A DNA stretch of 64,000 nucleotides, taken from the NCBI GenBank assembly GCA_040285825.1, contig JAUPSS010000002.1:62001-126000 (forward strand), read 5' to 3'. A program made the position numbers and the translations under genes. Under the pieces are notes generated by a model, which was given only the letters and a program-made list of their open reading frames with translations, was not told the DNA's origin and searched no databases. Below are positions 6,204 to 56,149 of this stretch, one piece after another. This DNA comes from Eukaryota sp. TZLM1-RC (taxonomy: Eukaryota > Protista > Metamonada: BaSk clade). Every line of letters starts with the position of its first letter. Position 1 is the stretch's first letter.

Positions 6204-6269
6204 GTGATTCAAGTAAGAGTTGGTTTGGGATGTTTTGATAGACGAGGAGGTTCATCATCACTCCCGTCC

Positions 6270-6876
6270 CCTTCCCCGCTGTTATCAAAATTTTGGGATT
6301 TTCAGCGACACTTAGAGGTTCATTGCTTAGAGGAGTTTCAGTAGTGATGACGAGGAAGTTATGTGTAAAGATTCAGTCTTAGACTGGTGTTCACTCTCTT
6401 TGCCCTCCGTACATACATTGGACCTGTTTGCATTCACTAACGAACCTAATTTCAGTTGCTCGCTCGGAGTGAGAAAACTTTTCGTGTTAAGAAGGGTTTC
6501 CGAGGGATTGTTTGGGTACGGGGTTACTGAATGATCTTCTGCAGGACGATTACTCTCCTTGTGAGGAAGATGATTTCCCTTCTGAAAAGGTTGAAGTTTC
6601 TGCCTTTGAAGGGGTTGGCTCTTCTCAGTGGGAAGTTCACTCTCCTTTGGAGGACTCTGCTTATGAGGATTTCATTTCTTTCCGAAAGAAAAATTACTGT
6701 TCTGAACAGGAGGACTGTCATCATTATGACTATTGAAGCCATTAATTGATGATGTTGTGTGGTTAGACATAACTATAAAAGTGTAGAATAAAAGGATATT
6801 TATCAAAATTCACTGGCCGTTACAAGGGCAATCACTAGTGAAAGCTATACTAGACCAATTGTCCACAGTACAACAT
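6270..6876 (-). mobile_element. Relic 5' end (LTR plus gag start) of a gypsy family related to element B
   Basis: TGATGATGTTGTGTGGTTAGACAT (6748-6770) resembles the element B LTR end TGATGATCTGTGGGGGTTAGACAT. Minus strand reads MSNHTTSSIN (B: MSNPHRSSIR), then an S/P/E-rich frame with an internal stop. Outer boundaries approximate. Confidence 0.5.
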
Positions 6877-7327
6877 TTAATCACGACCAAGTATAGACCA
6901 AGTATAGTGTTGCTTTTTCATCTGCTGAAATTTGTGGAAGGTTTCATAAATACTTTCACTCAGGAGAGCTCTGTTAGAAGACTATAGCATTGGATTATTT
7001 GTGATGTCATTGTGTTGCTTGTAAATAAAAGTTAATGGATGATGTTTTATGGTTTTACTTGCAGTCCTTCATTTGTTATTTACTACTGTGACAAAAGTTA
7101 AAGCTGAGCAAAATATGGTAATTGCGCCATTGAACATTGTTAAGAGAATTAACAGAGTTTGCTTACAATAGTTACACAGAATGCGTACTAATTGGTATCA
7201 GTTCTTGTGCAGAAAGAGCAACATTGCATTCAACTAATCAGAATTGTTCAAGGTCAATCATTTCACATCAATGTCTGTCCTCCTTCTCCTCCTCAAAGGA
7301 TGACAGCATGTTCTATTACACTTCCAC

Positions 7328-7828
7328 ATGTTTGCTCAAGTGCTGAAAGCTACCTGCTCTGTTTACTCTCCTTCTCGTTCAAAAAACACCAAAAATGTTG
7401 TTGAAAGAAAAATTGCCCAGCAAGTTCTATACAAAACTGAAATGTGTCGCCTGCTTATCGAGAAGGGACATTGTTCTTTTGGTCATCGTTGCAACTTTGC
7501 CCATTGCGAATCTGAGTTGAGACCGAAAATCTGCCACCCAAAGTTCAAATCTGATAAGTGTAGATCATTTCACGAAGATGGGTACTGTCCTTATGGAAGC
7601 CGATGTCGTTTTGATCACTCTTCACGTCATTCTTCTGCTCCAACTAAACCTACCAGCTCCAACATTCCATCTGTTTGTATGCGTGGTCCTTCTTCTCTGA
7701 TAGTGTTCCCAGACCCACAAAATGATGACCAGATCAATCGATTGGGTAATGTAGAGAAGTATTCCAAACGGTTACCCTTGTTTGAACGTCTTTGTTCTTC
7801 ACTGCCCCAGGGATGTACATTAATATAA
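7328..7828 (+). CDS. Tandem CCCH zinc-finger RNA-binding protein, tristetraprolin/ZFP36/TIS11-like (copy 1, intact)
   Basis: Two C-x8-C-x5-C-x3-H fingers with an 18-aa linker, YKTEMC lead-in, and C-terminal RLPLFERL resembling the TTP NOT1-binding motif RLPIFNRI. Confidence 0.92.
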   Translation: MFAQVLKATCSVYSPSRSKNTKNVVERKIAQQVLYKTEMCRLLIEKGHCSFGHRCNFAHCESELRPKICHPKFKSDKCRSFHEDGYCPYGSRCRFDHSSRHSSAPTKPTSSNIPSVCMRGPSSLIVFPDPQNDDQINRLGNVEKYSKRLPLFERLCSSLPQGCTLI

Positions 7829-8887
7829 TTGTAAAATGTAAATAAATTTTTTTTATTTTAAAATGTTTTTTTTACATCACTTTACTTGAATTTTTATTAT
7901 AGATTTGATTTGAAAAGAGAGGGAAATTCTTATTTTATGGTATAAAACAGATGCAAATACATTTATATAGCTACAGCAAAGTTGTTGTGATTACAGATTC
8001 TGTAAGATTCTACTCTAGCTCAAATAAACAATAAATACTAAGCCACAGAACTGGAGAATTGCAACTCGCCACAGATAACAGTAAAAGAAGAAAGAATAGA
8101 AGATTTAGTTCTTCCTATAAAATTCCTTCGAAATTTGGGATATCTTACATTTGATTATTTGGGCAAAATGTTTGTGGTGTATTTGTTACAATTGTCAGTC
8201 AACGATTTTAGCCCCCAGGATGCAAATGGTAGAAAGAACTGATCAAAATTTCGGTTTTTTTAGAAAATTTAATATTTTTCTGGACATTCATCAGTTTTCG
8301 AATGATTAAGCAGAATCAATAAATGTTCACACAAAAGATACAACCTTTTAATCTTAATGCTCCAACATTCGAAACAATACAATTTTTATTTAAATATCAC
8401 AGCATTGATTTTTTTGGAAATTCAAAGTGCGAAGACAACAAAAAGTTATACATAACGAGACCAATGTCATTATTGTGGAACACCTCCTTTAAATCGTCAC
8501 CTTGATGTTGATCTCACAAATTATTCAACCGTTTAAAAAGCAATTGTTGATCACAGTCACCAATTGATTGTGAATAATCAAGTTGCAAGACTTTGAATGA
8601 ATTTTTTATCTAGTCAAAATTCAAACTACAAATTTCTGTTCAAAATGATCCAAGAGCACAGTATTCATATGTTGTATTAATCTTAATGGCAGATTGTCAG
8701 ACTGTATCAATGTATTGAAACAATCCAATATTTACTTAGAATGCGTACTAATTGGTATAAGTTCTTGTGCAGAAAGAGCAACATTGCATTCAACTAATCA
8801 GAATTGTTCAAGGTCAATCATTTCACATCAATGTCTGTCCTCCTTCTCCTCCTCAAAAGATGACAGCATGTTCTATTACACTTCCAC

Positions 8888-9388
8888 ATGTTTGCTCAAG
8901 TGCTGAAAGCTACCTGCTCTGTTTACTCTCCTTCTCGTTGAAAAAACACCAAAAATATTGTTGAAAGAAAAATTGCCCAGCAAGTTCTATACAAAACTGA
9001 AATGTGTCGCCTGCTTATCGAGAAGGGACATTGTTCTTTTGGTGATCGTTGCAACTTTGCCCATTGCGAATCTGAGTTGAGACCGAAAATCTGCCACCCA
9101 AAGTTCAAATCTGATAAGTGTAGATCATTTCACGAAGATGGGTACTGTCCTTATGGAAGCCGATGTCGTTTTGATCACTCTTCACGTCATTCTTCTGCTC
9201 CAACTAAACCTACCAGCTCCAACATTCCCTCTGTTTGTATGCGTGGTCCTTCTTCTCTGATAGTGTTCCCAGACCCACAAAATGATGACCAGATCAATCG
9301 ATTGGGTAATGTAGAGAAGTATTCCAAACGGTTACCCTTGTTTGAACGTCTTTGTTCTTCACTGCCCCAGGGATGTACATTAATATAA
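8888..9388 (+). pseudogene. TTP-like copy 2 with nonsense codon
   Basis: TCA>TGA at 8939-8941 (codon 18); the downstream ORF from 9002 lacks the YKTE lead-in. Confidence 0.85.
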
Positions 9389-10443
9389 TTGTAAAATGTA
9401 AATAAATTTTTTTATTTTAAAATTTTTTTTACATCACTTTACTTGAATTTTTATTATAGATTTGATTTGAAAAAAGACGGAAATTCTTATTTCATGGTAA
9501 AAAACAGATGCAAATACATTTATATAGCTACAGCAAAGCTGTTGTGATTACAGATTCTGTAAGATTCTACTCTAGCTCAAATAGACAATAAATACTAAGC
9601 CACAGAACTGGAGAATTGCAACTCGCCACAGATAACAGTAAAAGAAGAAAGAATAGAAGATTTAGTTCTTCCTATAAAATTCCTTGGAAATTTGGGGTAT
9701 CTTGCATTTGATTATTTGGGCAAAATGTTTGTGGTGTATTTGTTACAATTGTCAGTCAACGATTTTAGCCCCCAGGATGCAAATGGTAGAAAGAACTGAT
9801 CAAAATTTCGGTTTTATTAGAAAATTTAATATATTTCTGGACATTCATCAGTTTTCGAATGATTAAGCAGAATCAATAAATGTTCACACAAAAGATACAA
9901 CCTTTTAATCTTAATGCTCCAACATTCGAAACAATACAATTTTATTTAAATATCACAGCATTGATTGTTTTGGAAATTCAAAGTGCGAAGACAACAAAAA
10001 GTTATACATAACGAGACCAATGTCATTATTGTGGAACACCTCCTTTAAATCGTCACCTTGATGTTGATCTACCAATTTATTCAACCGTTTAAAAAGCAAT
10101 TGTTGATCACAGTCACCAATTGATTGTGAATAATCAAGTTGCAAGACTTTGGATGAATTTTTTATCTAGTCAAAATTCAAACTACAAATTTCTGTTCAAA
10201 ATGATCCAAGAGCACAGTATTCATATGTTGTATTAATCTTAATGGCAGATTGTCAGACTGTATCAATGTATTGAAACAATCCAATATTTACTTAGAATGC
10301 GTACTAATTGGTATAAGTTCTTGTGCAGAAAGAGCAACATTGCATTCAACTAATCAGAATTGTTCAAGGTCAATCATGTCACATCAATGTCTGTCCTCCT
10401 TCTCCTCCTCAAAAGATGACAGCATGTTCTATTACACTTCCAC

Positions 10444-10944
10444 ATGTTTGCTCAAGTGCTGAAAGCTACCTGCTCTGTTTACTCTCCTTCTCGTTCAAAA
10501 AACACCAAAAATGTTGTTGAAAGAAAAATTGCCCAGCAAGTTCTATACAAAACTGAAATGTGTCGCCTGCTTATCGAGAAGGGACATTGTTCTTTTGGTC
10601 ATCGTTGCAACTTTGCCCATTGCGAATCTGAGTTGAGACCGAAAATCTGCCACCCAAAGTTCAAATCTGATAAGTGTAGATCATTTCACGAAGATGGGTA
10701 CTGTCCTTATGGAAGCCGATGTCGTTTTGATCACTCTTCACGTCATTCTTCTGCTCCAACTAAACCTACCAGCTCCAACATTCCCTCTGTTTGTATGCGT
10801 GGTCCTTCTTCTCTGATAGTGTTCCCAGACCCACAAAATGATGACCAGATCAATCGATTGGGTAATGTAGAGAAGTATTCCAAACGGTTACCCTTGTTTG
10901 AACGTCTTTGTTCTTCACTGCCCCAGGGATGTACATTAATATAA
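10444..10944 (+). CDS. TTP-like CCCH zinc-finger protein (copy 3, intact)
   Basis: 166 aa, protein identical to copy 1. Confidence 0.92.
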   Translation: MFAQVLKATCSVYSPSRSKNTKNVVERKIAQQVLYKTEMCRLLIEKGHCSFGHRCNFAHCESELRPKICHPKFKSDKCRSFHEDGYCPYGSRCRFDHSSRHSSAPTKPTSSNIPSVCMRGPSSLIVFPDPQNDDQINRLGNVEKYSKRLPLFERLCSSLPQGCTLI

Positions 10945-11420
10945 TTGTAAAATGTAAATAAATTTTTTTATTTTAAAATTTTTTTTACATCACTTTACTT
11001 GAATTTTTATTATAGATTTGATTTGAAAAAGACGGAAATTCTTATTTCATGGTAAAAAACAGATGCAAATACATTTATATAGCTACAGCAAAGCTGTTGT
11101 GATTACAGATTCTGTAAGATTCTACTCTAGCTCAAATAGACAATAAATACTAAGCCACAGAACTGGAGAATTGCAACTCGCCACAGATAACAGTAAAAGA
11201 AGAAAGAATAGAAGATTTAGTTCTTCCTATAAAATTCCTTGGAAATTTGGGGTATCTTGCATTTGATTATTTGGGCAAAATGTTTGTGGTGTATTTGTTA
11301 CAATTGTCAGTCAACGATTTTAGCCCCCAGGATGCATATGGTAGAAAGAACTGATCAAAATTTCGGTTTTATTAGAAAATTTAATATATTTCTGGACATT
11401 CATCAGTTTTCGAATGATTA

Positions 11421-11575
11421 TGATGATCTGTGGGGGTTAGACATTGAGTATACCTTAAATGTATTTTATTACAAGGGAATGAGGATTTCCCTTGACTTAA
11501 GCGCATGGGCGCAATAATACAATAACTATTAATAAACTATAAATAAACTATTATAAATATTATCCAAGGCTAACA
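11421..11575 (-). repeat. 3' LTR of element B (155 bp)
   Basis: Direct repeat of 18637-18791; contains AATAAA in element orientation and the pol stop codon. Confidence 0.95.
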
Positions 11576-14500
11576 CTGCCCTTTCTTCTTTTCGAGCGTC
11601 GAGGCCTGATAGGAGTTGGATTAACATTATTGTTAATATTATCAGAACGACGTTTACGGCGTGAAGGACGAGAGCGAGTATTAGAAACAAACTTGGAGAA
11701 TTCTTTATAGGCAGAGGTGTTTTGAACAGTCGAAACCAGCTCAGTGGTGATATGATTGCCAGGCCATTGGACTTGACAGTAATCACCATCCTGACTGAGG
11801 ACTTTCTGGATCACGTGCTCTTCTGCATCACCAGCAGCAACCCAGGAGTGAAATTCATCATCTACTGGTAAACTGGAATGCCAAGGTTGGAGGTGCTTCA
11901 CACTGGCTTTAACAACCATACCAGTACACAGGTTCTTGATGTCATCTGTGGAGGTAGAGGGTGTGTCAATAACTAAGAATGGTCCTTTGTAGTTACCATG
12001 TAACTTAGCAGTGGAAGACGAAGCTCGTTTGACCAATTGGCCAGGAGAGAAAGGGTTGGCTTCGATTTGGGAATCACGAGGAGGAGCCTTGGAAGCTTGA
12101 CGGAGCTCTGCTTCCTCCTGTTTCTTCTTCAATCTGGCAAATTTGGATTGAATGTTGTTGATGTAGGTTGACTCAGACGTTGAGCTTTCGAGGGTCTCTA
12201 TGATTTTGCCGGGGTCAGCTCTTGGGCTAAAATCTGAACCAAACATGAGCTCGTATGGAGAGTAACCTGTAATCGAACTCTTGGATGAGTTGATTAACAA
12301 TTGTACATAGGGTATGTACTCTGACCATGCGTCGTAGGCGTTAAAATCTACGAGCAGCTTCCTCAAATTCTGCAAAATGTCACGGTGACGGCGTTCGACT
12401 AAACCGTTGGACTGAGAGAAGTGAGGGACGGACTTTGAGACTTCTATGCCCAAAAACTCACATAGAGCGTCGAAGACAGCTTTGGAGAACTCAGGACCGT
12501 TGTCACTATGAACTATGAACGGGATCCCGAATATCGCGCATACCTTCCATATGAGAGCGTCAGCAGTAAGGTTGGCGTTGAGTTCTTTGAGAGGGACTAT
12601 GATAGTGAACCTCGTGAAGCTATCCACAAATACAAGAATGTATCTGTGGCCGTCTTGATCTTCTGGAAGAGGACCAATGACGTCGACGTTAACTCTAGCG
12701 AATGGTCTGTCAGCCCACAAGGAACCAGTTGTAGGGACATGCAGTTTGGGGACTGCTGCTGTCTTCTGACAGGAGGGGCATTCTTGAACGTGCTTGGTCA
12801 TGTCTGAAAGCATGTTAGGCCACCAGTAGTCGCTGTTCTTGAGTCTGAGGAGACTTTCTGCCTTACTGGGATGGCCACCTTGCGGGAGTCCATGTAGAAG
12901 GTTAAGCGTATCCTTAACCAGTGATTGAGGAATCACGATCTTGTGCTCTGGAGTCAGATAAAGATCTAGACGACTATCCAAAGTACAGTTGTTAAACGAG
13001 GTGTCCTGGTTAGCGAGGGCTCGCTTTTGTTCGGACCTGATCTTGCAGAGCCATGGCTCGAAGAGTGGGAGGTCATTGGAGCATTTGTCTTGAAGGATGA
13101 GCACCTTCTCAAATGTATGGAGATCTTCAACGAAGCATCTCTCTGACTCGGTTTCGTCAATCCTGTTTGTGTAGTAGATAGGGTGAAACTCTTGGTCATT
13201 AGAATGTACCAGATGGTTGATGGTATGATTGTCTTGGGGCGGTACTATCCTAGATAGCATGTCTGCCCAATGGTTCTCTTCCCCTTTTGTATGAACTATG
13301 TCGAATAGGAACTCAGAAAAGATGGGAAGCCACCTTCTGACTATTCTGTTTTTGTTCGGAGCGGTAAGCATGTAAGTAAGGTTTTGGTGATCTGTGAAAA
13401 TGATCAGACGCCTTCCTTTGAGGTAGTTCTCGAAGCCACTTTCGGTAAGCATGAGAAGGATAGCATAAAGCTCTTTCTGTACCGTGGGCCAGTTCTGCTG
13501 GGAGTTAGTCAACAATCTGCTGAAGAAGCTGATTGGTCTACATTTCCTATTGAGTAAGGAAGTACCAGGGTCCTTAGTGGGTTCTATTTGTTCCCAAATC
13601 ACGCCGCCAACTGCTATATCAGAGGCATCACAACTAATTAGTACTTGGTTATCCACCGGAGGTAAGTTGAGAGGCATATGCTCCGCGATCAGACGTTTGA
13701 TTTCGGCTAAATGGTAGTCGTGAGTGTCTTTCCACTGCAAGCGACGTGGTTTGCCATGTGTTAATTTGATGATCGGGGCAACATGCTTGGTTACCTGGGG
13801 AAGCCATTCCCTAATGAAGTTGACTGAGCCGATAAGGCTACGGGCGTCTATCACAGTCTTAGGTCTGGGAAGATTCAGTAAAGACTCTGTGCGTGTAGGA
13901 TCTATGGTCCTGGTTTTGTGTTGGAATCTGCTACCAAGGATCTTTATTGGGTGTCTAGAGGACACAAAATGACACTTGGGCATTCCAAGGCTAACTCTAC
14001 GGGTTCGAGCCTTCTCGAGGACACGTCTTAGACGTCCGAGGAACTCGTTGAAAGTTCTACCTACTATAATGATGTCATCTATATAGATGAATACACCGTC
14101 TCCGGAGAAGATGTCTGCCATAACGTTCTGGAAAACCGCAGGAACGTTCTTGAGGCCGAAAGCAGCACGTTTAAACATGATGCTTTTGCCAGGGATGCTT
14201 AAGGCAGTCTTCTCCCAGTCCTTTTCTGCAATCTTTAGTTGCCAAAAGGCTTTGGGGAGGTCAAGGGTACCGATGAAATTGGCTTCCGAAAGGAAGACTA
14301 GCACATCGGATATTCTGGGGAGATTAGGTTCAACGGGAACAGTGTTGGCGTTGACTCCGTCCTTGCCGCTGTAATCACCAGTAAGGCGAGGCTTACGATG
14401 ATCAGGGTATACCACAAGACATACTGGAGAGCTGAACTCATGGTTCGATGGTACAGCAAATCCAGACTCGACGAGTTCATCGAAGATCTGTTCGGCGACT

Positions 14501-15747
14501 TTCTGCTTCTCGGGGTTTAACCTACGAGGGGGTCGTCTGACTCGAATACTTTCATCATGAAAGTTGATCTCCATTGGAGGACAGTCAATCCCATCAGCAT
14601 GCGACTTAAGGGTGAATGTCTCTTCGAACTCTTTCAAGGTTAGAAGTAAGGTCTTCTTGTCGTTATCACAGTCGAGGTTAATAGTACAACCAGAAGACTG
14701 AATGTGCTCCAACCAACGTCTAGGGACGTTGACGACATCTGAGACTTGGGAGATTCGATGGTCGAATTCAGCCTCAGGCAGAAGTAATGTACGATGTTCC
14801 TCATCCATCTTGATGAAGAGACCTTCATCGTTCAATAAGCCTAGGTGATGCAACAGGTCTCTACCCATTAGTAACATATTGTTGCCAGGAATGATGGCCA
14901 AGCTATGTTTCACATGAACTAATTGGGTTACACTACCGAGTCTGAAGCTCAGTGTGCCTTCTGCTGATCCTAAAGACTTCGACATGATGTTGTTTGCAGA
15001 CTTGAAGTTTATGCAATGGTTAGTCTTTACCATGTTGCATCTCTCTGCTAAATCAACAGTGATGACTGATATCGAAGCTCCAGAGTCGATGATCCCTTCT
15101 ATTTCGCAGTTATTTATTGAAAATTTCAATTTTAAATTTTTGCGTGCGACATCTGAGGTGCGAACCATGAAGATATCGCTGTGGGACTCTGAGTCTGGGT
15201 TCGAGTCGAACTCATGATTGAAACAGGGTTTATTTGGTGTTTCTATCGTTGTAGCTGTTTTGAAATTCCGGGTAGTCAAAGGATTAGTTAAGCACTTAAT
15301 CCACTGGTTGGAGGCTGAGGTTTGTTTTATGTTTGGTGTTTTATGTGCTGGAGAGCTGTCTTGCTCTATAGTAAACAAGGAACATTTGTTTGAACGTTGC
15401 TTTGATGTATTACCTGTTGGAGAGCTATCTTGATCTATAGTAAACATTGAATATTTATGGGAACGTTTATTACTACTAGAAGGGCCCTTGCCTCTTCCTC
15501 TACGTCTACCTCTGCCTCTACTACTACTATTACTACTACCCCTAGCCAAATATGCTCGAACGGCATCTGGGTTGGCCTCTCGCCATTGCTTGGATCGCTG
15601 GCAATCAGGGTCGGGACATTCGTTAATAGAGTGGCCTGGAAAACCACAGAATCTACAGAGACCAGCTTTATCTCTTTCTTTCTTAATTTGCGACTTGCTC
15701 CTTTTGGTAAGTTGAGCAGGGGCGACGCTGGAACCCGCGGGCTTAAA
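11560..15747 (-). CDS. Zinc knuckle plus Pol (PR, RT, RNase H, integrase, chromodomain-like) of element B
   Basis: In frame with gag after a single TAA. CRFCGFPGHSINEC, IIDSGAS, YIDD, CDASDIAVGG, H..GH..CPSC, DVIGP/SDNGPEF/SNGLVER, GPF, EEHVIQKVL..VQWPG. Confidence 0.93.
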   Translation of the reverse strand, partial: FKPAGSSVAPAQLTKRSKSQIKKERDKAGLCRFCGFPGHSINECPDPDCQRSKQWREANPDAVRAYLARGSSNSSSRGRGRRRGRGKGPSSSNKRSHKYSMFTIDQDSSPTGNTSKQRSNKCSLFTIEQDSSPAHKTPNIKQTSASNQWIKCLTNPLTTRNFKTATTIETPNKPCFNHEFDSNPDSESHSDIFMVRTSDVARKNLKLKFSINNCEIEGIIDSGASISVITVDLAERCNMVKTNHCINFKSANNIMSKSLGSAEGTLSFRLGSVTQLVHVKHSLAIIPGNNMLLMGRDLLHHLGLLNDEGLFIKMDEEHRTLLLPEAEFDHRISQVSDVVNVPRRWLEHIQSSGCTINLDCDNDKKTLLLTLKEFEETFTLKSHADGIDCPPMEINFHDESIRVRRPPRRLNPEKQKVAEQIFDELVESGFAVPSNHEFSSPVCLVVYPDHRKPRLTGDYSGKDGVNANTVPVEPNLPRISDVLVFLSEANFIGTLDLPKAFWQLKIAEKDWEKTALSIPGKSIMFKRAAFGLKNVPAVFQNVMADIFSGDGVFIYIDDIIIVGRTFNEFLGRLRRVLEKARTRRVSLGMPKCHFVSSRHPIKILGSRFQHKTRTIDPTRTESLLNLPRPKTVIDARSLIGSVNFIREWLPQVTKHVAPIIKLTHGKPRRLQWKDTHDYHLAEIKRLIAEHMPLNLPPVDNQVLISCDASDIAVGGVIWEQIEPTKDPGTSLLNRKCRPISFFSRLLTNSQQNWPTVQKELYAILLMLTESGFENYLKGRRLIIFTDHQNLTYMLTAPNKNRIVRRWLPIFSEFLFDIVHTKGEENHWADMLSRIVPPQDNHTINHLVHSNDQEFHPIYYTNRIDETESERCFVEDLHTFEKVLILQDKCSNDLPLFEPWLCKIRSEQKRALANQDTSFNNCTLDSRLDLYLTPEHKIVIPQSLVKDTLNLLHGLPQGGHPSKAESLLRLKNSDYWWPNMLSDMTKHVQECPSCQKTAAVPKLHVPTTGSLWADRPFARVNVDVIGPLPEDQDGHRYILVFVDSFTRFTIIVPLKELNANLTADALIWKVCAIFGIPFIVHSDNGPEFSKAVFDALCEFLGIEVSKSVPHFSQSNGLVERRHRDILQNLRKLLVDFNAYDAWSEYIPYVQLLINSSKSSITGYSPYELMFGSDFSPRADPGKIIETLESSTSESTYINNIQSKFARLKKKQEEAELRQASKAPPRDSQIEANPFSPGQLVKRASSSTAKLHGNYKGPFLVIDTPSTSTDDIKNLCTGMVVKASVKHLQPWHSSLPVDDEFHSWVAAGDAEEHVIQKVLSQDGDYCQVQWPGNHITTELVSTVQNTSAYKEFSKFVSNTRSRPSRRKRRSDNINNNVNPTPIRPRRSKRRKGSVSLG

Positions 15748-18660
15748 TTAGCCTATTCTTTTTTTGTCCTTTGGGTTTGCTCTAACATAGTGACCCATAT
15801 GTTGTTGATAGCTGTCACTGATATTGGCCCTTTGCTCGTCATAGGATCTTGCTGAACACCAACTCATGTATTCAGCAGCAAGGATGTCGACAAATTGTTG
15901 TAAAGTATGGTGTTGCCAAACATTGGGTGTGGACCATACTGTTTTCAGGTTGTCACTGATGGCCTGAATACCAACAGAATCGATCATATGGGTTGCAATT
16001 TCCCAGTTTTGAATGCGCTGTAGGAAATGTTGACCATACAAGGCACGGTCGCTTGCCCTGACGTCAGAAATGGCAGAACTTCGTGAGACTGTTCTCATTA
16101 GCCTCACAGTGAAGTCGCCCCAGCGATTCCTAAAGTCCTGAATATTCCAATTCATCTGGACTCTATATAACTGATTCCTCGCCGTTTCTAATGTACTATA
16201 CTGGCTGAGGTGTAAAATTGATTCCCATATTTGCTCCTCATTAATGTTGTCGATAGCTGAGATACTATCAGACATAGACGAAAACCTGCCTTGAGCTCTT
16301 AGAGCAGCCAAGCACTCTGGAGTAACACAGGAGGCAATTCTACGAGGGTCGACTTGAGCAGCAGCTCTGAATCGGTCCCACTCGTGGAGGGGGTTACCAT
16401 ATCTCTGATCGAGAGGGAGGTTCCGGTTTTCTCTGCTAATGGATTGAGGAGTGGCAGGAGGACGAGAACGTTCCTCAAGTTGCCTTCTTAATTCAGACAC
16501 TTCTCTTGCTAGTCTGACTTGAGTAGGATCAGATTCATTGATGTCTCTCTCTTCAATGGTCCTCTCGGTCCTAGCATACAGAATAAATCTGTCGATAAAT
16601 TTCAAGATCCTTACTGGGTCAGAGATATCGTTGGCTTCCAGGGTGGGTTTTCTAGGTCGACCACCTCTTTGTCTATCTCTATCTCTATCTTGTGAACTCG
16701 CCATAGCTTCCATCAGTAGGGTGTTGGAATACTGGGGAGCTATGGGAGTGTTAGAAGGAGTTACTCCTAGGAGCCTAGGGTCCTGAGGAACCTGGGAGGG
16801 AGTTGATGGATCCTGAGATTGGACAACTGCAGGTTGTTGCACTGACTCAACAGTGTCAGTTGTTGCCATTGGCTCATCTTGTTGTTGGTCATCTTGAGGC
16901 TCAATTCTCAAAGATGAGAAGACTGTGTCTGTCTCAACTGGGTCAGGCTCAGAAGTTCTCAATTCTACCGGGTCATGATCGCTCGGATAGTAACTTTGCA
17001 CATTACCATCGACATTGACCCACAGAAGAGAACTAGAATTGGTGACACCAATGTTCTCCTGTATATTCATCAGGGCGTCCCTTAGTGGCCTATTCCTTCT
17101 ATGCTCCGGACCAAAATATGACGCGCAATGGTCTGGTCTGCGGTCTTGAAGGTACAATCTTTGGTAGTTCGTAGTGTAAGTGTACCACCATCCAGTCCTG
17201 AAGTCTCTATTGATATAAATATCAAGAGAGGCATTGTATCCAGGGCTAAACCTGGGGAAAGGACATGGGTTACATCGGTTGAGGAAGAGATTCAGCTCAT
17301 CACCAGCGAAGATCCTCTGTACACCTTCCCGAGGAGTTCTGAACCCTCCAACAGTATCCCGTTGAGGATAATTTGGAGGAGGGTCACAACGAACCGTAAG
17401 ATTGTCTACTTCCTCCGTTGGGAAGTAGGGACCTATTCTTCTGCGGATCCTAAAGCCGTGATCATTAACCACTTCTGGACCCCAAAATGGGGGTAAAGCA
17501 GCAATGAGTTCATTGGGAGGAATCGATGCAGGATCTCCTAACATTAACTCAATACCAGCATTGAGAACTAAGTTTTGAGCTTCAGTTCTCTGTTGGGTAG
17601 AGATGAAAGGAGAATCTGATTCCTGGGGTTGGCTTGGGGCTTGATAGGTGTTAGGCTGTGCAGCACTAAGCACCTGCCAAGCAGCAGGAACAGAAGAAAC
17701 AACGTGACCTTGCTGAGGAGTCTGGCCAGAGGTTGGAGGGACATGAATTACTCCTCTAGTAGGAACTCCCGAAGGAGGAACAGATGGAGTTGAATGGACT
17801 TCTGTAGGAGCTACCGTAGTAGGAGCAGAAGTATCAGGAAGGCCTGCTACAGGAACTTCTTGAGAAGGAGTAGTAGGATTTGGGCTACCAGCAGGGACTG
17901 CAGAAGGAGCTGGTTGTTGCGGAGGGCTGCTTTCCATAGGAACTTCCCTAGAAGGAATGGAAGGAGCTTGTTGTCCTTCCCCAGGAGCTTCCGTAGAAGA
18001 AGTAGAAGGAACTTGTTGTCCTTCCCCAGGAGCTTTCGTAGAAGAAGTGGAAGGGGCAACAGGAGCGCAAACAATAGGTGAAGAGGGAGGCTCTACCCTC
18101 TTGAGCTTCAACAGCTCAGATATCTTGTTGCTAGCCGAGTCAGGGTCAGTCTGGTTGATGATATACTTCAGATATTCATCTAAAGTACTGAACTGTTCAG
18201 GACCTAAAAGGGAATCTTCAACCTCTCCTTCAGAACCAGGGGGAGGAGAAAGAGGTACAAAGTTTTCCACATTAGCGGGAGGAACAGGAAGACTGATAGG
18301 AACCACAGGAACGTCATCCGTAGATGGAGTGGAACCTTGACCCGAGGGTTGAGAAGAAGTATCACTTCTCTCGCCACCAGAGGGTTGTTCTGTTCCCAAC
18401 TGTGGAGTTTGGGAGGAAGAACTTGTAACATTGGGTTGTGTAACAGAATCTCCGGAGGGAGGAGTTAACACAGGAGGAGGAGAAGCATTGCTTCCCTCGG
18501 ACCCAGTTGACAAGGGTTGTTCTGGTCCCGACTGAGGAGTTCGGGAGGAAGAACTCGAAGAGTGAGACGTAGGAGGATCAGTCCTAACAGTCTCGGAGTT
18601 GTCATTGGAACCACCCAAAGGTGATCCAATACGTATTGATGATCTGTGGGGGTTAGACAT
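15748..18660 (-). CDS. Gag-like protein of element B (970 aa, long P/S/T-rich N-terminus)
   Basis: Long ORF directly upstream of and in frame with pol; its ATG lies within the 5' LTR. Confidence 0.85.
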   Translation of the reverse strand: MSNPHRSSIRIGSPLGGSNDNSETVRTDPPTSHSSSSSSRTPQSGPEQPLSTGSEGSNASPPPVLTPPSGDSVTQPNVTSSSSQTPQLGTEQPSGGERSDTSSQPSGQGSTPSTDDVPVVPISLPVPPANVENFVPLSPPPGSEGEVEDSLLGPEQFSTLDEYLKYIINQTDPDSASNKISELLKLKRVEPPSSPIVCAPVAPSTSSTKAPGEGQQVPSTSSTEAPGEGQQAPSIPSREVPMESSPPQQPAPSAVPAGSPNPTTPSQEVPVAGLPDTSAPTTVAPTEVHSTPSVPPSGVPTRGVIHVPPTSGQTPQQGHVVSSVPAAWQVLSAAQPNTYQAPSQPQESDSPFISTQQRTEAQNLVLNAGIELMLGDPASIPPNELIAALPPFWGPEVVNDHGFRIRRRIGPYFPTEEVDNLTVRCDPPPNYPQRDTVGGFRTPREGVQRIFAGDELNLFLNRCNPCPFPRFSPGYNASLDIYINRDFRTGWWYTYTTNYQRLYLQDRRPDHCASYFGPEHRRNRPLRDALMNIQENIGVTNSSSLLWVNVDGNVQSYYPSDHDPVELRTSEPDPVETDTVFSSLRIEPQDDQQQDEPMATTDTVESVQQPAVVQSQDPSTPSQVPQDPRLLGVTPSNTPIAPQYSNTLLMEAMASSQDRDRDRQRGGRPRKPTLEANDISDPVRILKFIDRFILYARTERTIEERDINESDPTQVRLAREVSELRRQLEERSRPPATPQSISRENRNLPLDQRYGNPLHEWDRFRAAAQVDPRRIASCVTPECLAALRAQGRFSSMSDSISAIDNINEEQIWESILHLSQYSTLETARNQLYRVQMNWNIQDFRNRWGDFTVRLMRTVSRSSAISDVRASDRALYGQHFLQRIQNWEIATHMIDSVGIQAISDNLKTVWSTPNVWQHHTLQQFVDILAAEYMSWCSARSYDEQRANISDSYQQHMGHYVRANPKDKKRIG

Positions 18661-18791
18661 TGAGTATACCTTAAATGTAATTTATTACAAGGGAATGAGG
18701 ATTTCCCTTGACTTAAGCGCATGGGCGCAATAATACAATAACTATTAATAAACTATAAATAAACTATTATAAATATTATCCAAGGCTAACA
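18637..18791 (-). repeat. 5' LTR of element B (155 bp)
   Basis: Direct repeat of 11421-11575; contains the gag ATG (18660). Confidence 0.95.
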
Positions 18792-19374
18792 ATTAAGCAG
18801 AATCAATAAATGTTCACACAAAAGATACAACCTTTTAATCTTAATGCTCCAACATTCGAAACAATACAATTTTTATTTAAATATCACAGCATTGATTTTT
18901 TTGGAAATTCAAAGTGCGAAGACAACAAAAAGTTATACATAACGAGACCAATGTCATTATTGTAGAACACCTCCTTTAAATCGTCACCTTGATGTTGATC
19001 TCACAAATTATTCAACCGTTTAAAAAGCAATTGTTGATCACAGTCACCAATTGATTGTGAATAATCAAGTTGCAAGACTTTGGATGAATTTTTTATCTAG
19101 TCAAAATTCAAACTACAAATTTCTGTTCAAAATGATCCAAGAGCACAGTATTCATATGTTGTATTAATCTTAATGGCAGATTGTCAGACTGTATCAATGT
19201 ATTGAAACAATCCAATATTTACTTAGAATGCGTACTAATTGGTATAAGTTCTTGTGCAGAAAGAGCAACATTGCATTCAACTAATCAGAATTGTTCAAGG
19301 TCAATCATGTCACATCAATGTCTGTCCTCCTTCTCCTCCTCAAAAGATGACAGCATGTTCTATTACACTTCCAC

Positions 19375-19875
19375 ATGTTTGCTCAAGTGCTGAAAGCTAC
19401 CTGCTCTGTTTACTCTCCTTCTCGTTCAAAAAACACCAAAAATATTGTTGAAAGAAAAATTGCCCAGCAAGTTCTATACAAAACTGAAATGTGTCGCCTG
19501 CTTATCGAGAAGGGACATTTTTCTTTTGGTGATCGTTGCAACTTTGCCCATTGCGAATCTGAGTTGAGACCGAAAATCTGCCACCCAAAGTTCAAATCTG
19601 ATAAGTGTAGATCATTTCACGAAGATGGGTACTGTCCTTATGGAAGCCGATGTCGTTTTGATCACACTTCACGTCATTCATCTGCTCCAACTAAACCTAC
19701 CAGCTCCAACATTCCCTCTGTTTGTATGCGTGGTCCTTCTTCTCTGATAGTGTTCCCAGACCCACAAAATGATGACCAGATCAATCGATTGGGTAATGTA
19801 GAGAAGTATTCCAAACGGTTACCCTTGTTTGAACGTCTTTGTTCTTCACTGCCCCAGGGATGTACATTAATATAA
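19375..19875 (+). CDS. TTP-like copy 4 (second Cys of finger 1 mutated to Phe)
   Basis: KGHFSFG instead of KGHCSFG; ORF otherwise intact. Confidence 0.85.
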   Translation: MFAQVLKATCSVYSPSRSKNTKNIVERKIAQQVLYKTEMCRLLIEKGHFSFGDRCNFAHCESELRPKICHPKFKSDKCRSFHEDGYCPYGSRCRFDHTSRHSSAPTKPTSSNIPSVCMRGPSSLIVFPDPQNDDQINRLGNVEKYSKRLPLFERLCSSLPQGCTLI

Positions 19876-20932
19876 TTGTAAAATGTAAATAAATTTTTTT
19901 ATTTTAAAATTTTTTTTACATCACTTTACTTGAATTTTTATTATAGATTTGATTTGAAAAAAGACAGAAATTCTTATTTCATGGTAAAAAACAGATGCAA
20001 ATACATTTATATAGCTACAGCAAAGCTGTTGTGATTACAGATTCTGTAAGATTCTACTCTAGCTCAAATAGACAATAAATACTGAGCCACAGAACTGGAG
20101 AATTGCAACTCGCCACAGATAACAGTAAAAGAAGAAAGAATAGAAAATTTAGTTCTTCCTATAAAATTCCTTGGAAATTTGGGATATCTTGCATTTGATT
20201 ATTTGGGCAAAATGTTTGTGGTGTATTTGTTACAATTGTCAGTCAACGATTTTAGCCCCCAGGATGTAAATGGTAGAAAGAACTGATCAAAATTTCGGTT
20301 TTTTTAGAAAATTTAATATTTTTCTGGACATTCATCAGTTTTCGAATGATTAAGCAGAATCAATAAATGTTCACACAAAAGATACAACCTTTTAATCTTA
20401 ATGCTCCAACATTCGAAACAATACAATTTTTATTTAAATATCACAGCATTGATTTTTTTTGGAAATTCAAAGTGCGAAGACAACAAAAAGTTATACATAA
20501 CGAGACCAATGTCATTATTGTGGAACACCTCCTTTAAATCGTCACCTTGATGTTGATCTCACAAATTATTCAACCGTTTAAAAAGCAATTGTTGATCACA
20601 GTCACCAATTAATTGTGAATAATCAAGTTGCAAGACTTTGGATGAATTTTTTATCTAGTCAAAATTCAAACTACAAATTTCTGTTCAAAATGATCCAAGA
20701 GCACAGTATTCATATGTTGTATTAATCTTAATGGCAGATTGTCAGACTGTATCAATGTATTGAAACAATCCAATATTTACTTAGAATGCGTACTAATTGG
20801 TATATGTTCTTGTGCAGAAAGAGCAACATTGCATTCAACTAATCAGAATTGTTCAAGGTCAATCATGTCACATCAATGTCTGTCCTCCTTCTCCTCCTCA
20901 AAAGATGACAGCATGTTCTATTACACTTCCAC

Positions 20933-21434
20933 ATGTTTGCTCAAGTGCTGAAAGCTACCTGCTCTGTTTACTCTCCTTCTCGTTCAAAAAACACCAAAAA
21001 TGTTGTTGAAAGAAAAATTGCCCAGCAAGTTCTATACAAAACTGAAATGTGTCGCCTGCTTATCGAGAAGGGACATTGTTCTTTTGGTGATCGTTGCAAC
21101 TTTGCCCATTGCGAATCTGAGTTGAGACCGAAAATCTGCCACCCAAAGTTCAAATCTGATAAGTGTAGATCATTTCACGAAGATGGGTACTGTCCTTATG
21201 GAAGCCGATGTCGTTTTGATCACTCTTCACGTCATTCTTCTGCTCCAACTAAACCTACCAGCTCCAACATTCCCTCTGTTTGTATGCGTGGTCCTTCTTC
21301 TCTGATAGTGTTCCCAGACCCACAAAAATGATGACCAGATCAATCGATTGGGTAATGTAGAGAAGTATTCCAAACGGTTACCCTTGTTTGAACGTCTTTG
21401 TTCTTCACTGCCCCAGGGATGTACATTAATATAA
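20933..21434 (+). pseudogene. TTP-like copy 5, frameshifted after the zinc fingers
   Basis: Extra A in the run at 21324-21328 truncates the protein at 132 aa, removing RLPLFERL; could be a homopolymer sequencing error. Confidence 0.7.
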
Positions 21435-22491
21435 TTGTAAAATGTAAATAAATTTTTTTATTTTAAAATGTTTTTTTACATCACTTTACTTGAATTTTTA
21501 TTGTAGGTTTGATTTGAAAAGAGACGGAAATTCTTATTTTATAGTATAAAACAGATGCAAATACATTTATATAGCTACAGCAAAGCTGTTGTGATTACAG
21601 ATTCTGTAAGATTCTACTCTAGCTCAAATAGACAATAAACACTAAGCCACAGAACTGGAGAATTGCAACTCGCCACAGATAACAGTAAAAGAAGAAAGAA
21701 TAGAAGATTTAGTTCTTCCTATAAAATTCCTTGGAAATTTGGGGTATCTTGCATTTGATTATTTGGGCAAAATGTTTGTGGTGTATTTGTTACAATTGTC
21801 AGTCAACGATTTTAGCCCCCAGGATGCAAATGGTAGAAAGAACTGATCAAAATTTCGGTTTTATTAGAAAATTTAATATATTTCTGGACATTCATCAGTT
21901 TTCGAATGATTAAGCAGAATCAATAAATGTTCACACAAAAGATACAACCTTTTAATCTTAATGCTCCAACATTCGAAACAATACAATTTTTATTTAAATA
22001 TCACAGCATTGATTTTTTTGGAAATTCAAAGTGCGAAGACAACAAAAAGTTAGACATAACGAGACCAATGTCATTATTGTGGAACACCTCCTTTAAATCG
22101 TCACCTTGATGTTGATCTCACAAATTATTCAACCGTTTAAAAAGCAATTGTTGATCACAGTCACCAATTGATTGTGAATAATCAAGTTGCAAGACTTTGA
22201 ATGAATTTTTTATCTAGTCAAAATTCAAACTACAAATTTCTGTTCAAAATGATCCAAGAGCACAGTATTCATATGTTGTATTAATCTTAATGGCAGATTG
22301 TCAGACTGTATCAATGTATTGAAACAATCCAATATTTACTTAGAATGCGTACTAATTGGTATAAGTTCTTGTGCAGAAAGAGCAACATTGCATTCAACTA
22401 ATCAGAATTGTTCAAGGTCAATCATTTCACATCAATGTCTGTCCTCCTTCTCCTCCTCAAAAGATGACAGCATGTTCTATTACACTTCCAC

Positions 22492-22992
22492 ATGTTTGCT
22501 CAAGTGCTGAAAGCTACCTGCTCTGTTTACTCTCCTTCTCGTTGAAAAAACACCAAAAATATTGTTGAAAGAAAAATTGCCCAGCAAGTTCTATACAAAA
22601 CTGAAATGTGTCGCCTGCTTATCGAGAAGGGACATTGTTCTTTTGGTGATCGTTGCAACTTTGCCCATTGCGAATCTGAGTTGAGACCGAAAATCTGCCA
22701 CCCAAAGTTCAAATCTGATAAGTGTAGATCATTTCACGAAGATGGGTACTGTCCTTATGGAAGCCGATGTCGTTTTGATCACTCTTCACGTCATTCTTCT
22801 GCTCCAACTAAACCTACCAGCTCCAACATTCCCTCTGTTTGTATGCGTGGTCCTTCTTCTCTGATAGTGTTCCCAGACCCACAAAATGATGACCAGATCA
22901 ATCGATTGGGTAATGTAGAGAAGTATTCCAAACGGTTACCCTTGTTTGAACGTCTTTGTTCTTCACTGCCCCAGGGATGTACATTAATATAA
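22492..22992 (+). pseudogene. TTP-like copy 6 with the same nonsense codon as copy 2
   Basis: TGA at 22543-22545. Confidence 0.85.
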
Positions 22993-23505
22993 TTGTAAAA
23001 TGTAAATAAATTTTTTTATTTTAAAATTTTTTTACATCACTTTACTTGAATTTTTATTATAGATTTGATTTGAAAAAAAGACGGAAATTCTTATTTCATG
23101 GTAAAAAACAGATGCAAATACATTTATATAGCTACAGCAAAGCTGTTGTGATTACAGATTCTGTAAGATTCTACTCTAGCTCAAATAGACAATAAATACT
23201 AAGCCACAGAACTGGAGAATTGCAACTCGCCACAGATAACAGTAAAAGAAGAAAGAATAGAAGATTTAGTTCTTCCTATAAAATTCCTTGGAAATTTGGG
23301 GTATCTTGCATTTGATTATTTGGGCAAATTGTTTGTGGTGTATTTGTTACAATTATCAGTCAACGATTTTAGCCCCCAGGATGTAAATGGTAGAAAGAAC
23401 TGATCAAAATTTCGGTTTTTTTAGAAAATTTAATATTTTTCTGGACATTCATCAGTTTTCGAATGATTAAGCAGAATCAATAAATGTTCACACAAAAGAT
23501 ACAAC

Positions 23506-23584
23506 TGTTGCCTAAAGTCTATTGTAGTAAAGAAAAGTCTGATTTATTTTCTATTCATATTATATAAGCCTTAGGGCGCCAACA
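23506..23584 (-). repeat. 3' LTR of element C (79 bp)
   Basis: Identical to 30615-30693; TGTTG...CAACA termini. Confidence 0.96.
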
Positions 23585-23718
23585 CTGCTTCTTCCCTTTT
23601 TCAAAATAAATCAGCTTATATGAATATGAAATAAAAACTATATACAATTAACAAAACAACTATAAAAAATACATATAATCGATATAATATAATATAAATA
23701 ATCGATATAAACTAAGAA

Positions 23719-26700
23719 TTAGCTCCTCTTCCTAATTCTATTACTGCGTCTAGGCTTCTTAGAAGGCGTAGACTCATTGGAGGTACCTTGTCGTCGACTA
23801 ATGGTACGTTTTCCAATTTTCTTGTTATCCTTACTAAATAACTTATAAGCTTCTGAGTGTCTAACCGAGTGGAGTGGCTCTTCTGTTGTCTCACCGCCAA
23901 ACCACTGAACAGTACAGAAGCTACCTGAATCAGAGTGGTATTCTGAGAGGATTTTCTCTATAACGTGCTTTTCGGAATCGCCCGCAGCGACTGCCTTGAG
24001 GAATTCAATGTCCTGTGGATTTTCTGCGTTATAGATTTTGCAATCTTTCTTGGCAGCTTTTAATTCTGTGCCAGTAGTAAGATTCTTCAATAATAAAGTG
24101 GATTTGGAAGGAAGATCAATAACTAAAAATGGTCCATTCCAAGATCCATGCAATTTATTATTTTGCTTGGTTTTACGTAAGACGTAGTCACCAATATTAA
24201 ATACTGTAAAACACGAATTAGTATTATCTACTGAAGACGGAGTATTTAATGTTTGGTGACGCTCTGCTTCTTCCCTTTTTTCTTGTAGACGAGTGTATTT
24301 CATTTTGATGTCATCTAATAAAGGGATATTAGTTTCAAATTTGGATAAATTTCCTAATATATTAGCAGGGTCTGTTCTTGGACTAATCGAAGAACCGAAC
24401 ATGAGTTCGTATGGGGTAAAACCAGTTTTTCTGCTTTTAGTAGAATTTATTAATAGTTGGGATATAGGTACGTATGTAGACCAATTTCCGTAATCATTGA
24501 AATCTATTAATAGTTTCCTTAAGCACTGAAGAACGTCTCTATGTTTACGTTCTACAAGTCCATTACTTTCTGAATAGTGGGGAATTGAGTTACTCATCTC
24601 AATCGCTAATCTGTTACACACTATTTTGAAAGTCTCATTGGCGAACTCAGGTCCATTATCACTATGAATTAACATAGGTATGCCGAAGATAGCGCCAACA
24701 TTCCAAATCAAGGCATCTGCGGTTTCTAAGGCATTGAGTTCTTTTAGAGGGACTAAAATTGTATATCCAGTAAAAGAGTCTACAAATACTAATAGATATT
24801 TATTTCCTTCGTTGTCAGAATTTAGGGGTCCAATTGTATCGACATTTAATCTGGCAAAAGGACGATCTGCCCATAAAGATCCTGTGGAAGGTGTTTTTGA
24901 TCTTTTAACTGGAGCCGTTTTTTGACAAGTTGGGCATCTTTTGACATGATTAATAAGGTCCTTTCTCATATTGGGCCAGTAGAAATCGCTTTTGGACAGT
25001 TTGTGTAAACTATCATTTTTGCTGGGGTGACCAGATTGAACCAAACCATGTATTAATAATAGTGCCTGTTTTCTGAGGCTCTTTGGAATCAAAATTTTGT
25101 TTTTATTATTTTTCCAAATTTGAGTGTTTACATCTAGAATTGCGTTATCAAATAAAGAGTCGTTGTTGTTTTTGGCTATTTGTTGTTCAGATCTTATCTT
25201 AGACAGCCAAGAAGAAAAAATAGGTAGGTCTTGGTGTCTACTTAGAGATGAGATTGAAGGGATGTCTTCAAGATCCGAATCAGAATCATCGTCTAGTGGA
25301 GGTATCTCGTAATTCGAAAGTAAAGTGTCTGGTATAGTTATACTACAAATAGAAGGAGTTTCCTCGTTTTGATCCAAATCAATATTCCTCGATAGCATAT
25401 CTGCCCAATGGTTGTCTTCACCAGGTTCGTGGACTATGTCAAAGTCGAATTCAGATAGTATCGGCAGCCATCTCTTTACAATTCTATTTTTCTCTGGGGC
25501 TGTAGCCAGGAATGCAATGTTTTTATGATCTGTGAAAATTGTTAAATGTCTAGTTAACAAGTAGCTTTCTAAACAACTTTCAGTTAAAATCAGAAGTATT
25601 GCGTATAATTCTTTTTGTAAGGTGGACCATTTTCTTTGTGTTTCTGTAAGTAATCTACTATAGAATGACAAAGGTTTCACTTTCCTTTTATTTAGCGGGG
25701 TTCCTGCAGGGGAGTAGGGTTCAATTTCTTGCCAAATAACACCTCCTACTGCTACATCTGAAGCGTCAGTACTTATCAATACTCGCTTGCCCGGAGCTGG
25801 TAATTCAAGGGGCATGTGGTTTACTATTAGGTCTTTTATTTGTTTTAAGTAATCGTCATGCTTGCAAGTCCATTTAATTATTCTGGGTTTTCCTTTAATT
25901 AGCTCGTTAATTGGAGCAATTAATTCAGAAATACCTGGAAGCCAATCTCTAATATAATTGATGGATCCTACCAATGAGCGAACTTCTTTCACTGTTTTTG
26001 GTCTAGGGATTCTCATCAAGGCTTCGATTTTTTTCTTACTTATAAATCTAGTTTTATCCTGGAAGGTACTTCCTAAAATGTCGATAGGGTGTTTTGATGT
26101 TACGAATTTACATTTACGTAAGCCTATATTTACACGTCTATTTCTGGCGCATTGGAGGACTCTTTGTAATCTCTTATAGAATTCTTCGAAAGTCGTTCCA
26201 ACTATTATGATATCATCAATATATATAAAAACGCCATCAATTTGGAATATTTCCATCATTACATTTTGAAAAACTGCTGGGATGTTCTTTAATCCGAAGC
26301 AAGCTCTTTTAAACATAATTGATCTTCCAGGGATTGAGATTGATGTTTTCTCAATATCCTTCTCAGCAACATTCATCTGCCAGAAAGCTTTTGGTAAATC
26401 AAGCGTGGCGATGTAATTTGCTCTACTCAAAAATTCTAATATATCACTAATCCTAGGTAGATTAGGCTCTACTGAAATCGTATGGGCATTAACTCCATCT
26501 TTACCACTAAAGTCTCCAGTTAACCTGGGTTTTTTGCCGTCAGGGTATATAACTAAGACAATAGGAGAGCTGAATTTATAATTAGATTCAACTGCATAGC
26601 CCATTTCGATCAGTTCATCAAATATTTTGTTTGCTATTTCCAATTTGCTGGGATTTAACCGTCTAGCAGGTTTATGTACTATAGCATTCTCATCTCTAAA

Positions 26701-30528: not shown

Positions 30529-30614
30529 GATGAGATATCTTTGTTAGTAAGTTAATGAAGTTTGCTGAGGTTGTTAGTGGTATACCTTTTGACTTTAAAA
30601 TGGCCAATAATTAT

Positions 30615-30693
30615 TGTTGCCTAAAGTCTATTGTAGTAAAGAAAAGTCTGATTTATTTTCTATTCATATTATATAAGCCTTAGGGCGCCAACA
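30615..30693 (-). repeat. 5' LTR of element C (79 bp)
   Basis: Identical to 23506-23584. Confidence 0.96.
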
Positions 30694-31240
30694 CAACCTT
30701 TTAATCTTAATGCTCCAACATTCGAAACAATACAATTTTTATTTAAATATCACAGCATTGATTTTTTTGGAAATTCAAAGTGCGAAGACAACAAAAAGTT
30801 ATACATAACGAGACCAATGTCATTATTGTGGAACACCTCCTTTAAATCGTCACCTTGATGTTGATCTCACAAATTATTCAACCGTTTAAAAAGCAATTGT
30901 TGATCACAGTCACCAATTGATTGTGAATAATCAAGTTGCAAGACTTTGGATGAATTTTTTATCTAGTCAAAATTCAAACTACAAATTTCTGTTCAAAATG
31001 ATCCAAGAGCACAGTATTCAAATGTTGTATTAATCTTAATGGCAGATTGTCAGACTGTATCAATGTATTGAAACAATCCAATATTTACTTAGAATGCGTA
31101 CTAATTGGTATAAGTTCTTGTGCAGAAAAAGCAACATTGCATTCAACTAATCAGAATTGTTCAAGGTCAATCATGTCACATCAATGTCTGTCCTCCTTCT
31201 CCTCCTCAAAAGATGACAGCATGTTCTATTACACTTCCAC

Positions 31241-39298: not shown

Positions 39299-39329
39299 GG
39301 GGTGAGGAATTTTATTCTGAGCAATACTA

Positions 39330-47845: not shown

Positions 47846-47849
47846 GACT

Positions 47850-56080: not shown

Positions 56081-56149
56081 ACAAAATTTTTTTTTCGCTT
56101 ACGGAAATTTTTTTAAATAACATTCGTAATAGTTCTGTTTTTTTAATAA

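Follow-up and report, generated by a model that had tools for sequence, protein, structure and literature searches.

How does a long terminal repeat (LTR) retrotransposon start reverse transcription if the place of its tRNA primer-binding site (PBS) is taken by a palindrome? The question is raised by four Ty3/Gypsy elements, here called A to D, which were found by open reading frame (ORF) listing, self-comparison and Pfam in a 64,000-nt stretch of Eukaryota sp. TZLM1-RC (GCA_040285825.1, contig JAUPSS010000002.1, 62,001-126,000, forward strand; hereafter the window, in whose numbering all positions are given). A first-pass annotation had noticed 12-bp palindromes at the junctions of the 5' LTRs with the internal regions and suggested that they replace the PBS, vary by compensatory change and define the lineage. 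As read from DNA in A, B and C/D and from amino acids in the other families, the palindrome is conserved by paired changes of its letters. We assign a probability of about 0.5 to the reading that it is a self-complementary primer site in place of the tRNA PBS, through which two RNAs would anneal so that RNase H could cut one to prime the other.

Palindromes at the 5' LTR junctions

Elements B (11421-18791) and C (23506-30693) lie on the minus strand; D, which starts at 57243 and is truncated by the window edge, and the degenerate A, which starts at 494, lie on the plus strand. B, C and D are young Ty3/Gypsy retrotransposons. The 5' and 3' LTRs of B (155 bp) differ at one position and those of C (79 bp) at none, purine tracts adjoin the 3' LTRs, and both elements have 4-bp target-site duplications (TAAT in B, GTTG in C); because of these features, B and C can be called young and their ends fixed independently of the palindrome.

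At these junctions the palindromes stand where they had been reported. In B, CAATACGTATTG (18627-18638) has the form CA-ATACGTAT-TG; in C, CAATAATTATTG (30605-30616) has the form CA-ATAATTAT-TG, and the palindrome of D (57322-57333) is identical to it. All three are perfect, and in B and C the first CA of the palindrome is also the end of the LTR, as had been claimed. Since C and D are 98.5% identical over 6.4 kb and thus form one family, the independent perfect cases in the window are two. The register (the CA of the LTR, eight nucleotides, TG) is exactly the same in B, C/D and A, the palindrome stands at the position expected of a PBS, and the letters at positions 4, 5, 8 and 9 (TA..TA) are invariant across the window's four copies.

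Palindromy in itself is no commoner than expected: the window has 16 palindromes of 12 bp or more, against 21.5 expected. Of the 8,491 occurrences of CA on the two strands, 46 precede an 8-nt palindrome, and in six of these TG comes next; the six are the three 5' LTR junctions, each counted on two strands, and there are none elsewhere in the window. The unusual feature is the position of the palindrome, not palindromy. Beyond the 3' LTRs lies ordinary target DNA and no palindrome, and the U3 end has no comparable palindrome. A 41-bp fragment at 36838-36878, 93% like the start of the C/D LTR, includes neither the U5 end nor the palindrome. For the palindrome of B, no alternative letter is listed in the single covering contig of each of the runs X1, X2 and X3; the X3 contig of family B has nine listed substitutions and one insertion in the LTR (18690-18748), with the palindrome unchanged.

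The near-palindrome that had been noted at the candidate junction of A, CAGTAATTAATG (664-675), has one mismatch, 666 G against 673 A. At base 673, two of the three covering run contigs (both from X2) read C, which completes the palindrome, and the single X1 contig keeps the A of the window; the contig depths, 6.6 and 2, are low. The C had been predicted beforehand from related proteins, as the A family reads T-V-I-T-V. The near-palindrome is thus likely a mutated copy, and other copies of the A family appear to be perfect. The LTR start of A at 494 is backed by loose ends carrying a purine tract, and its end at 665 is set only by the terminal inverted repeat and by position. Further along A (6119-6560), a purine tract is followed by a TG-starting sequence unlike the 5' LTR of A; the element may be a chimera of two families.

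Paired changes in related Gag proteins

In B the Gag start codon lies inside the LTR (18658-18660), 22 nt before the palindrome, so that gag is translated through U5 and the primer site and the palindrome doubles as residues S-I-R-I-G. A likewise has its start codon inside the LTR (636-638), as many relatives apparently do. In C/D the codon is placed further down: in C the palindrome precedes the Gag ATG and has an in-frame stop immediately before it, and the palindrome is therefore non-coding. Because Gag starts in the LTR in B and many relatives, Gag N-termini reveal four of the six base pairs.

We scanned 159 proteins of the clade for pentapeptides that fit a CA-N8-TG palindrome in the frame of B within 30 residues of the protein start. 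Such pentapeptides were found in 57 proteins; the background was 205 among 165,619 positions deeper in the proteins, and 2 of the 66 outgroup proteins had one. Three of the matches (P0011, P0137 and P0155) look like chance and were excluded. The remaining 54 N-termini, from three genomes, read SIRIG (25), TVITG (13), TVITV (10), SLING (4), TVRTG (1) and TVRTV (1); all of them fit CA-D-TA-(CG/AT)-TA-H-TG and are perfect at the four visible pairs. Two further proteins, with SIRSG and SSING, are broken at one letter. One family has the site in another frame, where it reads NNNYC in six proteins and NNTYC in one; the latter (P0205, N-N-T-Y-C) has either a compensated centre or a single break, and the protein cannot tell which.

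Residues 2 and 4 are I/I, V/T or L/N, corresponding to A:T, G:C or T:A at bases 3 and 10, and residue 3 is R or I, corresponding to CG or AT at the centre. Placed on a tree of the reverse transcriptase (RT), the 15 families, which were grouped by hand and are related to each other, require at least three paired changes at pair 3/10 and at least four at the centre. Compensatory change, previously claimed for the centre, is supported there and at pair 3/10 as well. When labels were shuffled, all 15 families matched in 5 of 200,000 shuffles, although the families are not independent. The reading is at the DNA level for A, B and C/D, with P0001 standing for B and P0030 for A. The suggestion that the palindrome defines this lineage holds in so far as the motif is visible in 15 families; as worded it is too strong, since fungal GalEa Copia elements share the register and several basal families are unreadable.

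Most of the 102 clade proteins without a match begin inside gag or pol, and these rows are therefore uninformative rather than negative; the same applies to the 20 of 143 additional representatives with at least 42% identity, which have no junction motif at their N-termini. In the P0009 family and in P0022, P0044, P0046 and P0226-P0228, as in C, the start may lie downstream of the site.

How copying might start

Priming of the Tf1 type takes some 11 nt of the LTR that are complementary to the bases after it (PMC7175516), or 9-11 nt across the Tf1/sushi group. In all four elements the best match is 7 of 12 positions, ungapped, with a longest Watson-Crick run of 5 nt, so that the earlier failure to find such a complement in the LTR of B extends to the whole set. 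A PBS for a tRNA 3' end usually lies 0-3 nt from the LTR and needs G at position 16, opposite the invariant C61 of the tRNA. No TGG-led complement of a tRNA 3' end lies within a few nucleotides of the LTR in any of the four elements; TGG does occur, at +11 in A and at +9 in the other three, which exceeds the usual spacing. Ordinary tRNA priming at this TGG, across an unusually long spacer of 8-10 nt, has a precedent of sorts in DGLT-A, for which a TGG site without an identified tRNA is described (PMC5006619). We nevertheless regard it as very improbable: the TGG-led 18-mers differ among all three families, G at position 16 is present in none of the four, the implied acceptor strands have 1-3 G/C of 7, and Y-C-V, as the protein of one family reads over the site, would leave no room for TGG. 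The absence of this G, together with the spacing, agrees with the initial impression that the TGG sequences do not resemble tRNA 3'-end complements. Rfam and ARAGORN found nothing in the window, tRNAs included, and the longest complement of the 21 nt after the LTR elsewhere in the window is 9-10 nt, which is at chance level.

LTR elements package two RNAs. In the mechanism proposed here, two co-packaged RNAs would anneal head to head across the 12 bases, the RNase H of the element would cut one strand, and the 5' piece of that strand would prime minus-strand DNA on the other RNA. Base 10 of one RNA would lie in the duplex opposite the first base after the LTR of the other; cleavage at the final UG, or as much as 2 nt ahead of it, would leave a primer of 8-10 bp, and the first copied bases would be the LTR end. 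Plus-strand synthesis would then copy the primer back into the same palindrome, giving an overlap for the second strand transfer. This would account for the retained complementarity of all six pairs, those of the central four bases among them, because the copied primer regenerates the 12 bases only if they are palindromic. Flanking pairing between U5 and the leader may add grip in some families. Whether the elements represent a third way to start reverse transcription of LTR elements, with one packaged genome spent as primer and neither a tRNA nor a loop-back of the 5' end, seems to us an evenly balanced question.

The 12-mer alone has no monomer fold (0 kcal/mol), and its homoduplex is calculated at -13.5 kcal/mol in B and -9.6 kcal/mol in C. 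Homodimers of 48-mers (24 nt on each side of the centre) reach -39.1 (B) and -31.8 kcal/mol (C), beating 498 and 500 of 500 shuffles, respectively, and forming the dimer gains 12-16 kcal/mol over two monomers. For the mutated A of the window the 48-mer homodimer is unremarkable, with 182 of 500 shuffles as good. A hairpin stands beside the palindrome in A, and in C the U5 pairs with the leader.

Several observations weigh against intermolecular priming. Other 48-nt segments of these 5' regions form dimers of equal or greater stability (-39.8 in B and -39.7 in C). The monomer hairpin is significant in C/D (z = -2.89), with z of -0.53 in B and -1.36 in A, so that the flanking structure is not conserved; in B a competing downstream hairpin takes up the 3' half of the palindrome. 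A tRNA duplex of 18 bp is stronger than an AU-rich one of 12 bp. With only the four sequences of the window, the covariation is not significant (135 of 500 shuffles), and 11 of the 15 families are known from amino acids alone, which hide two of the six pairs and are read on the assumption of CGN for Arg and TTR for Leu. Finally, the judgement on tRNA concerns the shape of the TGG stretches, with host tRNAs, tRNA halves and small RNAs outside the comparison.

By sequence alone, priming and dimerisation are inseparable. A signal for dimerisation or packaging only, like the retroviral dimer initiation site (DIS) or the palindromes of Ty1 and Ty3, would predict both palindromy and compensating change; the primer would then be a tRNA fragment, another small RNA or a protein. 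In its favour, the C/D palindrome caps a significant hairpin, and palindromes have reportedly been described in Ty3 RNA (PMC11381356). Nothing in such a role would call for the exact register with the CA of the LTR, however, and at least four different palindromic 8-mers would each require a matching host RNA. Moreover, known dimer signals occur beside a PBS (PMC5445492), and no PBS is left here; we consider the explanation rather unlikely. A cut just after the palindrome, with the 3' end folding back on a 4-bp stem of the same RNA and full palindromy serving only the second strand transfer, is distinctly unlikely. It would fit the similar hairpins into which B and C/D fold, with the palindrome at the tip, and the intramolecular priming of the Tf1 type (PMC7175516), but the 12-mer alone forms no stable hairpin, the flanking stem that holds the hairpin is lost once the RNA is cut, and the dimer beats two monomers by the margin given above.

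A role at the DNA level is highly doubtful. Integrase, RT or a host dimer could use the palindrome as a symmetric site, or the palindrome could aid fold-back or annealing in the second strand transfer, with priming achieved by a route that the sequence does not show; it contains the CA recognised by integrase, and its TA..TA letters are those that stay invariant in the window. Yet the interchangeable A:T, G:C and T:A pairs and the CG/AT centres fit base pairing better than sequence-specific binding, a palindrome of this kind is missing from the U3 end, and priming would be left unexplained. We give next to no credence to chance or to a constraint on the overlapping Gag peptide. Shared ancestry and the location of the site inside the gag ORF in most readable families speak for them, but a peptide constraint is excluded, since C/D carry the site in non-coding sequence and relatives translate it in two different frames, one family reading N-N-N-Y-C. 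No logic at the protein level links the residues of the pairs I/I, V/T and L/N, yet at the level of bases they are exact complements, and chance is opposed by the label shuffles.

We favour intermolecular priming because the register is the same in B, C/D and A, perfect N-termini outnumber broken ones by 54 to 2, the changes are paired, two of three contigs have C at base 673, and the duplex energies are favourable. Two precedents point the same way, the register of GalEa and the cutting of an RNA duplex by RNase H to make a primer, which is established for Tf1 (PMC7175516).

The lineage among known elements and in its genome

A Gypsy clade with such a palindrome was not found described in the literature searched, and the architecture has one published precedent, the fungal GalEa Copia elements. 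According to PMC5445492, these have no PBS, and the LTR CA is followed by an 8-nt self-complementary core, CA-CTGATCAG-T, extended by the A of the LTR; the authors proposed in 2017 that the palindrome replaces the PBS, with no model that fits and the mechanism unknown. The window elements share both the 8-nt core after the LTR CA and the inclusion of the LTR end in the palindrome. GalEa elements are Copia, however, whereas the window elements have the Gypsy order, so that the origin is very probably independent, and the GalEa palindrome is of 10 bp against 12 bp here. The definition of GalEa also includes a second conserved 9-mer, CHSeq2, complementary to CHSeq1, which has no constant counterpart in the window elements. 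The main GalEa variant, CTAATTAGT, is set apart by G>A and C>T changes and is found mostly in families of low GC content (PMC5445492), whereas the window lineage includes transversions at two pairs. Because the GalEa variant may be damage by repeat-induced point mutation rather than covariation, the window lineage appears to provide better natural evidence that pairing is conserved. Intermolecular palindrome priming, if real, would have at least two origins in the same register, one in metamonad Gypsy and one in fungal Copia elements.

The self-priming chromoviruses Tf1, sushi and Tcn1 are likewise Ty3/Gypsy elements with a tRNA-free site directly after the LTR (PMC7175516, PMC4600332, PMC6317226 and PMC2864245). 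Their primer is made from element RNA by RNase H, and their integrase carries a chromodomain, as it does in basal members of the window clade. The Tf1 PBS, however, is complementary to the first 11 nt of the transcript and not palindromic (PMC7175516), whereas the window elements are palindromic and have the short LTR matches given above. Among protist Gypsy elements, the dictyostelid Skipper and DGLT-A likewise have neither a tRNA primer that was identified nor a complement in the LTR; a polypyrimidine stretch is present in Skipper, and in DGLT-A a TGG 2 bp after the LTR (PMC5006619). The word "palindrom" is absent from the main text of that paper. The retroviral DIS and the Ty1 and Ty3 RNA palindromes are alike in being able to join two genomic RNAs (in part PMC5445492), but they lie beside a tRNA PBS and are not tied to an LTR-terminal CA. 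In the literature searched, outside which lie most subscription papers and Repbase reports, neither a palindromic primer site in Gypsy nor intermolecular priming was described. The main text of the skoliomonad genome paper contains neither "LTR" nor "tRNA", and a microsporidian transposable element paper neither "PBS" nor "palindrom".

The closest relatives of the B RT-RNase H, with 36-99% identity, all come from Eukaryota sp. TZLM1-RC, GEM-RC1 and TZLM3-RCL, which we take to be skoliomonad metamonads; the next matches have at most 32%. The name Skoliomonas sp. GEMRC appears in PMC11316075. A profile search added two Logan proteins with 44-45% identity. The clade has SH-aLRT support of 100 in three quick trees and is not joined to the chromodomain-bearing outgroup row P0088 in a quick, midpoint-rooted tree that includes no named reference chromoviruses. 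Pfam Chromo is found in the basal members P0226 and P0227 (E 4e-8 and 5e-8) and has no match in B, C or any of six other members, which align as a degenerate form. The integrase C-terminus (11563-11800 in B, 23722-23960 in C) aligns with the chromodomain minus its typical aromatic residues, and basal relatives keep a canonical one; a fold search with the integrase returned integrases only, the chromodomain not being separately probed. Descent from self-priming chromoviruses is possible, as far as these alignments go. Metagenome contigs yielded no relative either by alignment (0 of 81 candidates) or by the clade-specific RT motif (0 matches). Three distant loci in viral contigs, none with a usable LTR pair, were dropped, and the motif scan and two outgroup scans of these contigs were empty; a single weak match in prokaryote contigs (E 6e-4) was disregarded.

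The assignment of the elements to Ty3/Gypsy (Metaviridae-like) follows from the Pfam order protease-RT-RNase H-integrase in B and C and from TG...CA LTRs, a polypurine tract and target-site duplications; the top solved-structure relative is Ty3 Gag-Pol (E 9e-58). On the minus strand, B consists of the 5' LTR (18637-18791, TG...CA, with the Gag ATG at 18660-18658), the gag ORF (15748-18660), pol (11560-15747), the polypurine tract (11576-11595) and the adjoining 3' LTR (11421-11575). By Pfam, alignment and model, the pol of B comprises protease, RT, RNase H and integrase with a C-terminal degenerate chromodomain-like region. An in-frame TAA at 15748-15750 splits gag from pol in B, and several database copies of the family are predicted as fused proteins of ~2,370 aa; the TAA is either read through or specific to this copy. 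C, also on the minus strand, has its 5' LTR at 30615-30693, a single gag-pol ORF of 2274 aa from stop to stop (23719-30543), a polypurine tract at 23585-23604 and the 3' LTR at 23506-23584. Judging by the single ORF and identical LTRs of C, young elements of the lineage apparently are intact. On the plus strand lie the 5' LTR of D (57243-57323, 81 bp, C family) and the probable 5' LTR of A (494-665, 172 bp). When C and D are compared (30495-30614 and 57324-57450), the LTR and the first 36 nt after it are identical except for a T-run, and the following ~100 nt diverge markedly, most of gag-pol being 98.5% alike; this may reflect selection acting on the leader or a recombination event close to the 5' end.

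A tandem array with a 1,558-bp unit (7166-11420, 18792-23505 and 30694-33624) encodes two CCCH zinc fingers (PF00642) in an ORF of 174 aa. Both B and C lie within this unit in the same orientation, their insertion sites being ~35 bp apart, which hints at an insertion hot spot. Decayed elements with a non-LTR-type reverse transcriptase are present in several partial copies (46080-50261 and 55588-57242; RVT_1 at 47335-47946), and D sits at the end of one of them. A dispersed ~290-bp repeat occurs in both orientations (1-291, 35653-35935, 41110-41398 and 46543-46803) and has high depth in X1 and X2. The host genes, which are single long ORFs, encode POP1 (37061-39361), an RRM protein (43129-43848), an FtsJ-type methyltransferase (50363-51280) and a CEP76-domain protein (51427-54753).

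How copying starts in LTR elements that have neither a tRNA site nor a Tf1-type loop is an open question, as for GalEa CHS, Skipper and SM-Tcn1. The lineage described here offers natural compensating variants at two base pairs as well as young elements, and thereby makes the question directly testable. If two RNAs must indeed pair to prime, dimer formation and priming would be one step, one genome copy would be consumed per cycle, and the element would be independent of the host tRNA supply.

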